IMG/VR virus record: IMGVR_UViG_3300025289_000030
Coordinates: 1-55,982 of that record
Source of the DNA: a virus
Taxonomy: Duplodnaviria > Caudoviricetes
Length of the DNA stretch: 55,982 nt
Reading direction: 5' to 3' (one strand)
Part shown: in pieces, positions 46,137-48,489 of the stretch
How positions within the stretch are numbered: position 1 is the first letter of the stretch
How the letters are laid out: each line of letters opens with the position of its first letter
Notes under the pieces: model-generated
What the model saw: only the letters and a program-made list of their open reading frames with translations
What the model was told of the DNA's origin: nothing
The model's database searches: none
Translations under genes and position numbers: made by a program

Positions 46137-47435
46137 TTATTTCCTATCAAGTACTGCTTTAAATGTTTCTGTTTTATTAATTAATACTTTTACAATATAT
46201 TCTTCTAATGAATCTTTTACTACAAAGTAATAAATATTAACAGAATTTTTCTGTCCTATCCGATGCAGCCTATCTACACTTTGGTTTATAACCGCAGGAC
46301 TCCAATCTAGTTCTGCTAATATTACGTGACTAGCGCGAGTTAGAGTTATACCAGTGCCGGCCGCAGTAAACTGCCCAATAAATAAATTAGTTTTAGCTTC
46401 TTGAAAAGCTTCTACATAATCAAACCTGTCTTTAGCACTTGTGTCACCAGTAATTATTACTGGTTTAAATTTAGCCAATGCAGCACTTAGTTTTCTTATG
46501 AATTCTCTATGATAAGCAAACAGCACTACTGGTATATTATTTTCTAATAAATTACTTGCAAACTCAGCTATAGCAGGCACTTTAAGCTCTGCTTGAAGGC
46601 GGCGATGCTCTGCTAAAGAATGAGGCACAACCGCAGTTTTTGCATAATCCGCAATGTCAGTTTCTAATCTATCGTTTTCTTCTTTAGTAGTTTTAAGTAA
46701 ATACTCAGCACCAAGTTTTATTTCAGTATAAATCTTAGGCGGTAAATCTTTTAAGACTTCATCTTTTTTTAGTCTTATATAGAAATTACTTTTAATTATT
46801 TTAGAAAGTTTCTTAGTGTTCCTAGCACCAATAATTTTAACGCCCCAAGGTGTCGGTTTCTGGTAAGCATATTCATTAATAAAACTATAGTAATTAGTAA
46901 ATTTTTCAGGCAGCATTTTATTAAAAAGAGTATATCCGTCTGCGACTGATTGCGTGAAAGGAGTGCCCGATAATGCTAGGCGATAAGCAGCTAGATGCCA
47001 AATTTTTTCTAATATTGCTACAGTTCGTTTTGTTTTTCTGGTTTTTATGTAGTGACTTTCATCGAGAATAAGTAAATCAATTTTAGCTGGCAATTTATTT
47101 ATAAATACATCAGAACGAGCAATGTCGTAAGACACAATAGTGTACTTTTTATAAAGCAGCGTCTGCTTAGATGCTAATATAACATCAATGTCCGCACTAA
47201 CACCCCATTTCATAATCTCAGCTTCCCAAGTATAGCGCATTATGGCGGGACAAATTATAAGAATATTTTCAGCATTTAAATACTTGGCAGCACGAATAGC
47301 ACATATAGTTTTACCCAGTCCCATTTCCAAAGCACAGTAGCAAGACCTTTCTTTATTTTTCTCTTTTAGAAAATAAAGTATTTGACCTACCGTGTCTTCC
47401 TGAAATGTAAAAAGTTTTAAAGGAGTTTGCAGCAT
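46137..47435 (-). CDS. SNF2-family (SF2) helicase
   Basis: EMGLGKT, LDESH, LSGTP, GTGITL, QSVDRLHRIGQ. Confidence 0.9.
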   Translation of the reverse strand: MLQTPLKLFTFQEDTVGQILYFLKEKNKERSCYCALEMGLGKTICAIRAAKYLNAENILIICPAIMRYTWEAEIMKWGVSADIDVILASKQTLLYKKYTIVSYDIARSDVFINKLPAKIDLLILDESHYIKTRKTKRTVAILEKIWHLAAYRLALSGTPFTQSVADGYTLFNKMLPEKFTNYYSFINEYAYQKPTPWGVKIIGARNTKKLSKIIKSNFYIRLKKDEVLKDLPPKIYTEIKLGAEYLLKTTKEENDRLETDIADYAKTAVVPHSLAEHRRLQAELKVPAIAEFASNLLENNIPVVLFAYHREFIRKLSAALAKFKPVIITGDTSAKDRFDYVEAFQEAKTNLFIGQFTAAGTGITLTRASHVILAELDWSPAVINQSVDRLHRIGQKNSVNIYYFVVKDSLEEYIVKVLINKTETFKAVLDRK

Positions 47436-47671
47436 TATACGTTTCTTCCTGATTCACACAGTGAAGTAGAATAGGCACACCCATAAAATCCGTCTTTAAA
47501 TCTAGAATAAGATCTTGAACAAACTCTCCAGCTCGAATCTATTTTAGACCTACAAAAAGAACTGAATTTATATTCATAGTTATGTGTTCTACAAATTGAA
47601 GTACCTATTTTAAAGTAAGCACTTCTAGATTTAGAATAATAATAAGACTCTTTAACCATTAAATAAATCAT
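47435..47671 (-). CDS. Ser/Cys/aromatic-rich basic peptide, copy B
   Basis: 78 aa; 53/78 identical, ungapped, to 47990..48226; TAATG-coupled to the helicase. Confidence 0.7.
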   Translation of the reverse strand: MIYLMVKESYYYSKSRSAYFKIGTSICRTHNYEYKFSSFCRSKIDSSWRVCSRSYSRFKDGFYGCAYSTSLCESGRNV

Positions 47672-47853
47672 AATCTTTCACCAGAATTAGATTTATATCT
47701 TTTCCACATTTTAGACTTGCAGTTAGAGCACATCCATGACCAAGGTTTTGGGTTAGTTAAAGACCAATTTAATGAAGTAGATAGAAATTTTTGTCTAGAA
47801 AATGATCTTGACCAAATCCAGGGTTTCAATTTATTAGCTACTAAATGAGTCAT
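47668..47853 (-). CDS. Ser/Trp-rich basic peptide
   Basis: PWIWSRSFSR...WSWMCS; ATGA overlaps at both ends. Confidence 0.6.
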   Translation of the reverse strand: MTHLVANKLKPWIWSRSFSRQKFLSTSLNWSLTNPKPWSWMCSNCKSKMWKRYKSNSGERL

Positions 47854-47990
47854 GGTTTTAAGCTTTGAGAAGTAGAATCGCTATATGGTAACTCCCACAT
47901 TCCGCTTCTTGAATATGACCATCTATACTGCCAATGATATGTGTGGGAATATGAAAACCTATTATTTTTATAATTGCGTATAAAGTGCAT
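47850..47990 (-). CDS. Ser/aromatic-rich peptide (46 aa)
   Basis: Manual translation MHFIRNYKNNRFSYSHTYHWQYRWSYSRSGMWELPYSDSTSQSLKP; TGATG and ATGA overlaps; not in ORF track. Confidence 0.6.
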   Translation of the reverse strand: MHFIRNYKNNRFSYSHTYHWQYRWSYSRSGMWELPYSDSTSQSLKP

Positions 47991-48226
47991 CATAAATGTC
48001 TACCTGAATTACAAAGTGAATTAGAATATGCAAAACCAAAAAATCCATCTTTAAATCTAGAGTAAGATCTAGAACAAACTCTCCATCTGGAATCTAGTCG
48101 AGATGCACAAAAAGAAGTAAATTTATACTCATATTTATGTACTCTACAGACTGAACCACACATTTTAAAATAAGCGCTTTTTGATCTAGAACAATAATAA
48201 GGCTTTTTAATTATAAAATAAATCAT
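47990..48226 (-). CDS. Ser/Cys/aromatic-rich basic peptide, copy A
   Basis: 78 aa paralogue of 47435..47671; TAATG-coupled to the upstream gene. Confidence 0.7.
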   Translation of the reverse strand: MIYFIIKKPYYCSRSKSAYFKMCGSVCRVHKYEYKFTSFCASRLDSRWRVCSRSYSRFKDGFFGFAYSNSLCNSGRHL

Positions 48227-48489
48227 TATTTAGTTTCTCTTGGCAAAGGATGTCGCCATTCATACACGTCAACAATAGATGCAATTGAAACTCTAATTGG
48301 GCACGTAACACATTCGACTTCACTTAAAGTGCCCGTCTCAATAGCTTCACCAAAACGTCCTGAATCTGCTACCCAAGCAGCATCTTTTAAAAATATAAAA
48401 CCACCTACTATTTCAGTTATTTCGCCTGTGCAATGATACGTCACAGTTCTAATAAATACTTTTTCTCCGATTTTAAAAGCTTCTGACAT
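48226..48489 (-). CDS. Small beta-barrel (Sm/SH3-like, DUF6948-like) phage protein
   Basis: IGEKVFIRTVTYHCTG...LKDAAWVADSGRF..A...G.LSEVE; family recognised from memory. Confidence 0.65.
   Translation of the reverse strand: MSEAFKIGEKVFIRTVTYHCTGEITEIVGGFIFLKDAAWVADSGRFGEAIETGTLSEVECVTCPIRVSIASIVDVYEWRHPLPRETK

Follow-up and report, generated by a model that had tools for sequence, protein, structure and literature searches.

A four-peptide array between a predicted Sm-like barrel gene and an SNF2 helicase gene in a soil phage: a possible diverged form of a widespread two-gene phage unit

Eukaryotic SmB, SmD1, SmD3 and LSm4 are Sm/LSm proteins that carry Arg-rich low-complexity tails, and an N-terminal α-helix before strand 1 is typical of the Sm/LSm/Hfq fold. 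The RS domains of splicing factors and the protamine-like DNA condensers are likewise basic, Ser/Arg-rich and nucleic-acid-binding. Phage proteins that are small, made early, predicted to adopt an LSm-like fold and suspected of a role with RNA have been published; both the fold and the role are also proposed for the barrel protein of this study. The available part of that account reports that they ran as monomer and dimer and that no confident multimer models were obtained, and it mentions no Ser-repeat partner, which sets them apart from the family described here. Gram-positive serine-rich repeat glycoproteins, which are very large, secreted, glycosylated surface adhesins, likewise have Ser at alternate positions over long stretches (PMC6973325); the peptides considered below are instead cytoplasmic-looking microproteins of 47-78 aa with basic or aromatic residues between the serines, encoded in a phage replication operon.

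The window, the whole stretch of 55,982 nucleotides of IMG/VR record IMGVR_UViG_3300025289_000030, contains a minus-strand gene chain in the replication operon of a soil phage. In this chain, the barrel gene, four small ORFs (A1, B, C, and A2) and an SNF2 helicase gene follow one another with overlaps of 1 or 4 bases (Table 1). The junctions are TAATG (barrel/A1), ATGA or TGATG (A1/B), ATGA (B/C), ATGA (C/A2), and TAATG (A2/SNF2), and the chaining of five ORFs into the helicase gene that a sequence-only reading had pointed out was thus seen at all five of them. The peptide lengths given in that reading (78, 46, 61, and 78 aa) also hold, with the second being 46 aa from the second ATG (the TGATG reading) and 47 aa when the first ATG is used.

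Table 1. Positions of the barrel gene, the peptide genes and neighbouring elements in the window.
Feature	Position	Strand	Description
TTGACA hexamer and poor -10 TAATCT	48589-48617	(-)	seen in the sequence; absent from the promoter scan list
15-bp hairpin followed by T-run in the structured leader 5' of the barrel gene	48514-48549	(-)	terminator-like site
Gene of predicted Sm-like small barrel protein	48226-48489	(-)	87 aa ORF; opens the chain
Peptide A1	47990-48226	(-)	78 aa, pI 9.8, 13 Ser, 17 aromatic, 6 Cys
Peptide B	47850-47993	(-)	47 aa, pI 9.8, 9 Ser, 11 aromatic
Peptide C	47668-47853	(-)	61 aa, pI 10.8, 11 Ser, 12 Arg+Lys
Peptide A2	47435-47671	(-)	78 aa, pI 9.4, 16 Ser, 16 aromatic, 5 Cys
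SNF2-family helicase, next operon gene	46137-47435	(-)	Pfam SNF2-rel_dom E 3.8e-23, Helicase_C E 1.5e-14

The 161-nt leader upstream of the barrel gene is strongly structured (-46.2 kcal/mol, z -5.41), and none of 200 shuffled sequences reached equal stability. An Rfam scan of the window returned a tRNA as its sole match. A TTGACA promoter had been proposed to drive the chain. The hexamer does exist (48617-48612), while its promoter status is doubtful: the TAATCT located 17 nt downstream matches TATAAT at only 3 of 6 positions, the scan omits the site, and promoter-like sites were not enriched in the sequence (12 found against 14.0 +/- 4.3 in shuffles).

The barrel protein belongs to a family marked by the motifs IRTVT and DAAW[VI]ADSGRF. 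A homology search gave 74 homologues besides itself at E <= 1e-3, with 42-80% identity, and no Pfam domain was found in any of the 74. All of the invariant alignment columns (R14, T15, T17, G22, W39, A41, G44, R45, G53, E59, and P83) are present in the window's protein, and the most conserved motif, W39 to F46, is located after strand 3. Many homologues carry N-terminal extensions of 20-60 residues, and the model described below is that of the 87-aa protein of the window. The family was found in 264 IMG/VR viral contigs and also in genomes assigned to many bacterial phyla, while a tblastn search of 50,697 phage records with the barrel matched one uncultured phage alone. A weak search for longer proteins in which barrel and tail would be fused yielded no such fusion, the single hit being a 292-aa protein with an unassignable N-terminal part.

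The AF2 model of the barrel (pLDDT 92.3, pTM 0.83) is a small, strongly bent five-stranded β-barrel. When the model was compared with solved structures by VIA-align, the best match was 1loj_A (Z 9.0, rmsd 2.0, 67 of 76 residues), and 20 chains were found at Z >= 8, with nearly all top rows being Sm/LSm; since Z values of 7-8 are common for unmatched models, the margin is modest. Foldseek also placed Sm/LSm/Hfq structures in its top rows, with a best E of 3.1e-3 and none at E <= 1e-3. In the model, residues 1-9 are coil, no helix precedes strand 1, and the sole helix (residues 46-52) lies between strands 3 and 4. The barrel matched no Pfam family at E <= 10, no NCBIfam family at E <= 0.1 and no PHROG, the LSM and Hfq sequence models included. 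The structural comparisons show, at the level of a predicted structure, that the barrel has an Sm/LSm-like fold, as the sequence-only reading had supposed.

The neighbourhoods of the barrel genes revealed a nearly constant companion. At 80 of 85 homologous loci, the barrel gene adjoins an ORF encoding a (Ser-X)n peptide, which is directly downstream in 67 loci and just upstream in 13 more; four of the five remaining loci have no upstream sequence in the record. The (Ser-X)n ORF lies within 300 nt of the barrel gene in 78 of 79 loci, as compared to about 8% by chance. Among the 67 downstream ORFs, the start codon lies -3 to +5 nt from the barrel stop in 49 and is ATG in 56. The encoded microprotein consists of a short hydrophobic leader and a (Ser-X)n core, in which Ser fills 97% of one register, X is Arg (38%), Trp (27%) or Gly (27%) in no fixed order (observed/expected 0.83-1.19), and the median net charge is +10. 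At least two copies are present in 15 of the 85 loci, with four in L018 and four, dispersed, in L005. The expectation that barrel genes are often followed by an SRSWS-type ORF was therefore borne out by this survey, which also supports the existence of a two-part unit as inferred in the sequence-only reading. The pair also appears to be undescribed, as had been suggested: no published description was found in the literature searched, and in GenBank MW202573.1 the two proteins are annotated merely as hypothetical (UOF78857.1 and UOF78858.1).

The canonical arrays are hexamer microsatellites whose length varies by slippage, and a 120-nt in-frame indel in the repeat separates otherwise identical phages. 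The Ser codons of the repeat are TCN in 50 loci and AGY in 17, and the two are never mixed. Since TCN and AGY loci encode the same peptide while their other frames differ, selection appears to act on Ser-X at the protein level. In pure hexamer copies, which make up most of the family, it is nevertheless hard to prove that the target of selection is the Ser-X reading frame and not the repeated DNA. The four copies in the window are no longer repeats, and ordinary selection tests therefore apply to them.

The four ORFs, each of at least 47 aa, together span 100% of 792 nt. It is extremely improbable that this region is non-coding, be it a decayed hexamer-repeat tract or some other spacer, with open frames that arose by accident. 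Such a reading is encouraged by the slippage of the canonical arrays and by the fact that their other frames are often open as well (40-51 of 67 loci). Against it, the maximum ORF cover in 5000 mononucleotide shuffles was 78% and none reached 95%, stops crowd the remaining five frames of the region, purifying selection is specific to the ORF frame, and no indels were observed there across four metagenome runs, all of them DNA contigs. No RNA run was listed for the stretch, which counts neither for nor against this reading. Stop-codon recoding was also considered on account of conserved TAG positions in another sense frame. It was dropped because that frame also contains TAA stops, the long genes are open in table 11, and the selection described below is specific to the ORF frame.

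A1 and A2 are identical at 53 of 78 residues without gaps and at 190 of 237 nucleotides, and their likeness ends exactly at the ORF borders, with only 10/60 and 12/60 identical positions in the 60-nt flanks. The differences fall on codon positions 1, 2, and 3 in the numbers 13, 12, and 22. Read in the ORF frame, the pair gave a dN/dS of 0.34, as compared to 1.0-1.2 in either of the remaining sense frames (Fisher p = 0.002 for the A1/A2 comparison); a value of 0.39 was obtained in one antisense frame, which is interrupted by stop codons. When the same 46 changes were placed randomly, a mean of 32.3 residue changes resulted, as compared to 25 observed (P(<=25) = 0.0026), and just 5.1% of the simulated copies were free of stops. 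In metagenome contigs at a depth of 2.4-4, five of the six SNPs in B and C were synonymous third-position changes (three of four in B, the other being F13S, and both in C), and four of five SNPs in the adjoining SNF2 helicase gene showed the same pattern. Purifying selection on the four ORFs is thus demonstrated by sequence comparison, and the earlier statement that the two 78-mers are related and conserved in this manner is upheld. The companion suggestion that the peptides are under diversification is supported by neither the A1/A2 ratio nor the SNPs. Judged from their sequences, the four ORFs are very probably translated genes.

A GGAG, GAGG or AGGA core is absent upstream of all four peptide genes, which are therefore probably dependent on translational coupling. 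In combination with the overlap of all five junctions by 1 or 4 bases, this might suggest that the chain is a relay by which ribosomes pass from the barrel gene on to the SNF2 gene, and that it sets helicase expression, with the peptides being by-products. We regard such a role as very unlikely. Such a core precedes just 21 of the 58 genes of the phage anyway, the family keeps its Ser-X composition whatever gene lies downstream, and residue conservation exceeds what is needed for an open frame, as seen from the stop-free simulated copies (P = 0.0058).

The four peptides are basic (pI 9.4-10.8, with 6-15 Arg+Lys each) and contain Ser-x-Ser runs such as CSRSKSA, CSRSYSR, WSYSRSG, and WSRSFSR. 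Compared with the long ORFs of the phage, they are rich in Ser (18.6% vs 6.7%, about 3-fold), Trp (4.2% vs 1.0%, about 4-fold), Arg (8.7% vs 3.6%), Tyr (9.5% vs 3.7%), and Cys (4.9% vs 1.2%). Ser accounts for 17-21% of the residues of A1, B, C, and A2, and the x-Ser runs are limited to 2-4 units. In shuffling tests, Ser-x-Ser alternation exceeded that expected from composition in B (p = 0.0001) and A1 (p = 0.02) and was not significant in C (0.07) and A2 (0.15). Thus, the description of the peptides as basic with S-x-S runs was accurate, while their Ser/aromatic alternation had been overstated.

Several observations bear on the relation of the array to the canonical partner. The barrel of the window belongs to a set of 19 rows with good support (100/98), and all of the other 18 have a canonical peptide downstream. 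In L005, the order is barrel, canonical Ser-X peptide, and SNF2, and the SNF2 protein is 31% identical (E 7e-32) to that of the window. The start of A1 overlaps the barrel stop on the same strand, as is the case in the family. L060, an AT-rich phage of 29% GC, encodes two similarly degenerate peptides of intermediate form. The closest barrel relatives are on short contigs: L105 (80%) has a short Ser-rich ORF, L106 (77%) has none downstream, and the contig of L110 (71%) ends inside the barrel gene, so that these relatives offered no orthologues of the four peptides. When the first 14 residues of the 279 ORFs of the window were compared with 62 canonical leaders, A1 ranked 3rd, C 6th, B 126th, and A2 213th, a weak ranking in which spurious AT-rich ORFs score equally high. 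Unlike the canonical partners, the window's peptides do not carry Ser at alternate positions along most of their length; they are therefore called diverged relatives or stand-ins rather than canonical members, and the searches detected no homology that would connect them with the canonical Ser-X peptides or with other proteins. On balance, the four peptides probably descend from the canonical Ser-X partner or stand in for it. The earlier idea that the partner had been expanded and diversified here accordingly holds as far as the four diverged copies in the partner slot are concerned, while no sequence homology with the canonical repeat peptides was detected.

Database searches with the peptides returned little. 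B and C showed no significant similarity to A1/A2 or to each other. The 78-mers had no match in phage records by tblastn (E <= 1), matched themselves alone in a word-indexed search of 5.8 billion proteins, and reached best scores of 0.76-0.77 in the protein atlas, under the lead threshold. There was no match of the peptides in Pfam, PHROGs or NCBIfam, apart from zinc-finger matches of C far below the cut-off (E >= 0.045). A profile of A1 and A2 searched against 1.84 billion representatives recovered themselves and P0077 alone. P0077 is a 2389-aa repeat protein that was matched with an E of 4e-5 summed across six stretches (12/29 identity pairwise), and its repeats, judging from the sequence, presumably resemble cell-wall-binding repeats. 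The AF2 model of A1 (pLDDT 54, low confidence) is all-β with four long strands in two hairpins. Since the model is all-β rather than disordered, the 78-mers may be small folded proteins with another job.

The P0077 match, the A1 model and the missing homology to canonical peptides would also fit unrelated early orphan proteins that simply happen to lie in the slot and are not partners of the barrel. They could be small folded β-hairpin proteins, or host-takeover peptides acting on the membrane, cell wall or nucleoid; Arg/Trp-rich antimicrobial peptides act on membranes and nucleic acids (compare PMC10630377). We consider this unlikely. The slot is exactly that of the canonical partner in the nearest relatives, the unusual composition and Ser-x-Ser runs of that partner are present, intermediate forms occur in the second AT-rich phage, and no Pfam cell-wall- or choline-binding repeat family matched A1/A2 even at E <= 10.

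Based on these results, our leading reading, to which we assign a probability of roughly 45%, is that a widespread two-gene phage unit, for which a nucleic-acid-binding role is proposed, occurs in this region in a diverged form with four copies of the partner. The canonical unit consists of a gene for a small protein of predicted Sm fold and, coupled to it in translation, a gene for a basic microprotein; A1, B, C, and A2 fill the partner slot between the barrel and the SNF2 helicase. The strict repeat would have been lost and the family character kept, namely the basic pI, high Ser, high Trp, and short Ser-x-Ser runs; the added Tyr, Phe, Cys, and Lys may be the outcome of one-base AT-ward changes in Ser, Trp, Arg, and Gly codons.

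As to mechanism, our best guess, a tentative one, is that the peptides, being basic and aromatic, bind nucleic acid as partners of the Sm-like protein. Coupled translation would keep their synthesis in step with that of the Sm-like protein, and together with it they might attach to RNA or single-stranded DNA through their charge and by stacking on bases. The ring that the sequence-only reading supposed for the barrel is likewise conjectural, and so are the roles it offered for the peptides, as RNA binders, amyloid-like decoys, or kinase or defence substrates. This could serve the annealing, coating or condensing of nucleic acid early in infection. The arrangement would parallel the Arg-rich tails of eukaryotic Sm proteins, here placed in separate genes. 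It is a speculative and rather improbable extension that Sm-like barrels and alternating-dipeptide microproteins form one general undescribed phage device with two flavours, basic Ser-(Arg/Trp/Gly) and acidic Gly-(Tyr/Ser/Asp). In such a device, the barrel would serve as the nucleus and the repeat peptide as a multivalent 'sticker-spacer' polymer, the two together giving nucleic-acid-protein condensates for replication or host RNA capture. The window would then represent an end point, at which slipping microsatellite peptides had hardened into four stable, selected, possibly β-hairpin mini-proteins.

The genes surrounding the pair bear both on the nucleic-acid reading, which is favoured by the prevalence of DNA-related genes among the recognisable neighbours, and on a different function. 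Among 153 flanking ORFs, 41 had a Pfam match, mostly to DNA replication, recombination or modification genes, and no third conserved partner gene was found. The matches include seven DNA methylases and one each of Mom, Tad3 (a Thoeris inhibitor), and AbiTii, and a Dam methylase gene is located 2.5 kb downstream in the window. The location of the pair in early accessory regions, next to genes that often have ties to defence evasion, together with the fast variation in copy number and repeat length, may imply that the Sm-like protein and its basic, Ser-rich peptides counteract a host defence. They could be decoy substrates of a kinase or of some other modifying enzyme, could soak up a signalling molecule, or could shield the nucleic acid of the phage. 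Overall, we find such a function unlikely: 112 of the 153 neighbours lack a Pfam match and the rest are mixed, and hence the association is not specific; the spread of the module across many host phyla is easier to reconcile with a generic target than with a single defence system; and the copies in the window are under purifying, not diversifying, selection.

The leading reading, a diverged form of the two-gene unit, bears on a barrel family that is widespread and nearly always joined to a Ser-X microprotein gene, and yet no family library names the barrel. The tests on the window indicate purifying selection on the peptides and suggest that their Ser, basic and aromatic residues outlast the decay of the repeat. 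If it is true that the Sm-like protein and the peptides handle RNA or DNA, the pair would be a common, overlooked part of early phage biology.

Comparison with the known systems places the locus as follows. With eukaryotic Sm/LSm proteins, it shares a predicted Sm-type barrel (Z 8-9 to archaeal and eukaryotic chains) and basic low-complexity sequence. It differs from them in that the basic part is a separate gene, is of Ser-X rather than Arg-Gly type and carries Trp, and in that the barrel is without an LSM sequence match and has a helix between strands 3 and 4. RS domains and protamine-like condensers are similar in their basic Ser/Arg-rich sequence and SRS-type runs. There is no homology to them, and Trp and other aromatic residues are much higher in the peptides of the window; Ser phosphorylation controls the eukaryotic examples, and the peptides have no kinase linked to them. 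DUF6948 (PF22253) offers a likeness in gene arrangement, with a small barrel gene and an overlapping alternating-dipeptide ORF at five of six loci examined. DUF6948 proteins were among the fold matches of the modelled barrel (E 3.7e-3 to 6.5e-3), and the two kinds of module stand side by side in L008. Their downstream partner is, in contrast, an acidic (Gly-X)n peptide in which Gly alternates with Ser, Tyr or Asp. The window's barrel did not match the DUF6948 Pfam model, and hhalign of the barrel-family alignment against five DUF6948 proteins gave a probability of 6.6% over 31 columns. The canonical phage pair (L003, L005, and MW202573.1) shares the homologous barrel, at 39-80% identity, the overlapping basic Ser-rich partner on the same strand and the occurrence of multi-copy forms. 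It differs in using a single Ser codon class per locus and in the hexamer slippage of its length, whereas the four peptides of the window mix TCN and AGY codons, are non-repetitive and rich in Tyr, Phe, Cys, and Lys, and include a diverged 78-aa duplicate pair.

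The window record has a G+C content of 32%, is estimated to be 92% complete over its 55,982 bp, and encodes DNA polymerase I, a Gp2.5-like ssDNA-binding protein, an exonuclease, RusA and a 2080-aa virion protein with a lytic domain. The gene of an IRTVT/DAAW[VI]ADSGRF-family protein (the barrel) and four small ORFs (A1, B, C and A2) come first in a long replication operon that runs leftward. A sequence-only reading had described these ORFs as a chain running straight into the SNF2 helicase gene, and this was borne out: all five junctions from the barrel gene through the helicase gene overlap by one or four bases. 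Such coupling of translation suggests that the barrel and the peptides would be made together.

Features of the operon head and, in the last row, of the parallel DUF6948 pair at other loci
Feature	Coordinates	Strand	Remark
tRNA-Cys	48636-48707	-	first in minus-strand order
Structured 161-nt leader	48480-48640	-	between tRNA and barrel start
Barrel ORF, 87 aa	48226-48489	-	
A1, 78 aa	47990-48226	-	
B, 47 aa	47850-47993	-	
C, 61 aa	47668-47853	-	
A2, 78 aa	47435-47671	-	
SNF2-family helicase	46137-47435	-	Pfam E 3.8e-23
D5-type primase	49015-51540		divergently transcribed
DUF6948 + acidic (Gly-Ser/Tyr/Asp)n ORF	L008 5021-5691 (= L125 1501-2171); L126, L127, L128, L130		DUF6948 Pfam E 1e-32

The tRNA-Cys (GCA), the sole tRNA of the phage, precedes the barrel operon by 147 nt, and an A>G variant within it (48705) was present in three metagenome runs. 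The leader is unusually stable (-46.2 kcal/mol, z -5.41) and contains, just ahead of the barrel start, a 15-bp hairpin with a T-run (48549-48514, minus strand), which could be a terminator of the tRNA or an attenuator of the operon. Cys density among 59 ORFs placed A1 second (7.7%) and A2 fourth (6.4%), compared with 1.36% overall.

Whether the four ORFs are genes was assessed from their tiling, their divergence and population variation. A1, B, C and A2 together tile 792 nt in full; across 5,000 shuffles of this stretch, ORFs of at least 47 aa covered no more than 78% and averaged 0.41 per shuffle, and the remaining five frames of the region are full of stops. A1 and A2 align without gaps (53/78 identity in protein, 190/237 in DNA) exactly from ATG to stop between unrelated flanks, and their nucleotide differences at codon positions 1, 2 and 3 numbered 13, 12 and 22. 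Read in the ORF frame, the pair has a Nei-Gojobori dN/dS of 0.34, versus 1.0-1.2 in either remaining sense frame (0.39 was obtained for an antisense frame that contains stops), with a Fisher p of 0.002 for the contrast between synonymous and non-synonymous changes. Random placement of the same 46 changes on A1, their base spectrum preserved, led to 32.3 ± 2.4 residue changes compared with the 25 observed (P = 0.0026), and just 5.1% of the simulated copies were without stops. The purifying selection that had been suspected for the 78-aa paralogues was thus upheld. The rival and unlikely reading of the chain as a translation relay to the helicase would suit the overlaps, but this selection on the residues speaks against it. 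As an aside, A1 and A2 constitute 237-bp direct repeats, 80% identical, on either side of B and C, a layout that could allow deletion or amplification by recombination.

Since neither B nor C has a paralogue, contigs from four soil or sediment metagenome runs were aligned to the region and their SNPs were used instead. Six SNPs were found in B and C, five synonymous at third positions and one F13S; the probability of at least five of six at third positions is about 0.02 if all positions are equally likely, and given the low depth of the variant contigs (2.4-4), this pattern is supporting evidence and not proof. Four of five helicase SNPs were synonymous, and the region showed no indels or joints across the four runs. 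The rival that the region is non-coding DNA is very unlikely in view of the tiling and the frame-specific selection, and we infer that the four ORFs are translated. The array is real, as the sequence-only reading had observed.

The neighbourhoods of barrel homologues were surveyed in loci from viral contigs (264 relatives, 79 loci kept), genomes (24 loci) and one phage record. A tblastn match was present in 102 loci, 85 of which entered the analysis; the 17 left out had less than 450 nt downstream or a weak or partial match (identity below 36%, or L101-L104). In 67 of the 85, the barrel was followed by an ORF containing six or more Ser-x-Ser motifs; this ORF had an ATG start in 56 of these and started -3 to +5 nt from the barrel stop in 49, of which 28 showed an ATGA overlap. 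Of the 18 loci lacking it, 13 had a Ser-X ORF directly upstream of the barrel. In four of the remaining five, less than 400 nt of sequence is present upstream, and L024 alone stands without a Ser-X ORF. Under a stricter filter, a Ser-X ORF lay within 300 nt of the barrel in 78 of 79 loci, versus about 8% by chance. The linkage of barrel homologues to an SRSWS-type ORF given in the sequence-only reading therefore stood, downstream in 67 of 85 loci and upstream in 13. Two or more Ser-X copies were present at 15 loci, including four in tandem at L018 and four dispersed ones with one shared leader at L005. In the latter locus (3282-7503, 34% G+C), the Ser-X genes, which share the leader MLIPLHILNNVS or close variants, are located on both sides of the barrel, behind the SNF2 helicase and at a more distant point of the operon.

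The canonical partner consists of a leader of 6-20 residues and a core of median 58 residues, with a median net charge of +10. In this core, one register is 97% Ser, and X, the residue between, is Arg (38%), Trp (27%) or Gly (27%), nearly at random in order. Each locus uses one Ser codon class: TCN in 50 loci (two with a single AGY) and AGY in 17. Around the module, the viral contigs L034 and L037 show 100% identity apart from a single in-frame indel of 120 nt (20 hexamers) in the repeat, so that their peptides measure 101 and 61 aa. Given the single codon class per locus and this indel, the canonical arrays are hexamer microsatellites that slip in length. Since two unrelated hexamers encode one and the same peptide but differ in the products of every other frame, conservation lies in the Ser-X reading.

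The barrel itself had no match in Pfam, PHROG or NCBIfam, none of which supports Sm-family membership by sequence, and its 74 homologues in a large protein collection are all without a name. FIRTVT and DAAW[VI]ADSGRF are sharply conserved, and the window barrel carries EVEC where most members have EVEP. The AlphaFold2 model from the family alignment (pLDDT 92.3, pTM 0.83) ranked Sm, LSm and Hfq chains at the top of an all-against-all structural search (archaeal Sm protein: Z 9.0, rmsd 2.0, 67 residues; 20 chains at Z ≥ 8). Foldseek pointed the same way with less strength (best E 3.1e-3; no match at 1e-3), and the best matches among predicted viral structures were uncharacterised phage proteins, including several DUF6948 proteins and one 'RNA binding protein'. 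An Sm-like fold is thus supported for the predicted structure. Strand 1 of the model lacks a preceding helix; a helix instead lies between strands 3 and 4.

The window barrel belongs to a well-supported set of 19 rows (support 100/98), in which each of the 18 others has a canonical peptide downstream; in its near neighbour L005, the order is barrel, peptide and an SNF2 helicase 31% identical to that of the window. A1, B, C and A2 therefore occupy the slot of the partner. Like the partner, they are basic (pI 9.4-10.8), rich in Ser (18.6% vs 6.7% in the long ORFs of the phage), Trp (4.2% vs 1.0%) and Arg (8.7% vs 3.6%), and contain Ser-x-Ser runs such as CSRSKSA, WSYSRSG and WSRSFSR. They are also enriched in Tyr, Phe, Cys and Lys, an excess that, judging from the genetic code, would fit one-base changes towards A or T in the codons for Ser, Trp, Arg and Gly. 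Two similarly degenerate peptides follow the barrel in L060, an AT-rich phage (29% G+C).

Unlike the canonical partner, the window peptides are not strict repeats. The claim that all four are Ser-alternating held for B and A1, in which alternation significantly exceeds composition, but not for C and A2. B and C have no significant similarity to A1/A2 or to each other, and the likeness of the four N-termini to canonical leaders (ranks 3, 6, 126 and 213 of 279 window ORFs) was not convincing. In tblastn of phage records and large protein searches, the 78-mers had no relative. An A1+A2 profile did match, over residues 10-38, six repeats of P0077, a 2389-aa protein (E 4e-5; pairwise identity 12/29; nothing in Pfam). 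Its aromatic repeats presumably resemble cell-wall-binding repeats, and the match may be compositional. The rival that the peptides are unrelated orphan early proteins draws on this lack of homology, whereas the slot and character of the peptides speak against it. Since slot and character fit and homology evidence does not, we regard the four as relatives of the canonical partner that have diverged, or as stand-ins for it in function (probability ca. 0.7), and not as canonical members. The barrel/Ser-X module is unstudied and the window carries a variant of it, the value of which is that its copies, being non-repetitive, permit selection tests. The Ser-richest window ORF (51% Ser; 38045-38242, plus strand) was rejected as a further copy; it is antisense to the Gp2.5-like gene (38011-38760, minus strand) and probably spurious.

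RNA binding is common among Sm-fold proteins, and basic, aromatic-rich peptides would be suited to nucleic-acid binding through charge and stacking. The points demonstrated are the genes, the fold, the linkage and the selection, and any mode of action goes beyond them. The preferred reading, although the odds are somewhat against it, makes the peptides basic partners, encoded in trans, of an Sm-like protein that binds nucleic acid; early in infection they would anneal, coat or condense it. The all-beta model of A1, of low confidence (pLDDT 54), hints that the partner in the window may have turned into a small hairpin protein. The two-part system of Sm-like ring and Ser peptides proposed earlier was partly supported: the linkage and the Sm-like fold of the model stood. 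A rival is a counter-defence role of the barrel and peptides, on which the neighbouring genes bear. Pfam was run on 81 of 83 downstream and 72 of 74 upstream flanking ORFs (leaving out duplicate locus L078 and L001), and 41 of 153 matched (20/81 downstream, 21/72 upstream). These were mainly replication, recombination and DNA-modification genes, including seven DNA methylases, four RecT, two helicases, nucleases and integrases, as well as Mom, Tad3 and AbiTii.

No family library (Pfam, PHROG, NCBIfam) names the barrel or the peptides, and a full-text literature search returned no description of DUF6948 or of the barrel/Ser-X pair. Closest is a paper on early T4 proteins predicted to be LSm-like (PMC12152347), in the consulted passages of which no repeat partner is mentioned. 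A parallel pair was found at DUF6948 loci. An acidic Gly-X ORF overlaps downstream of the DUF6948 gene in five of six loci examined (L129 ends too early), and at L008 this pair directly follows the Ser-X peptide of the barrel module, so that the two pairs lie side by side. A Gly-X ORF also occurs at 3 of the 85 barrel loci, just upstream of the barrel in L006 and L049. The DUF6948 pair thus parallels the barrel pair, but its partner is an acidic Gly-X peptide instead of a basic Ser-X one.
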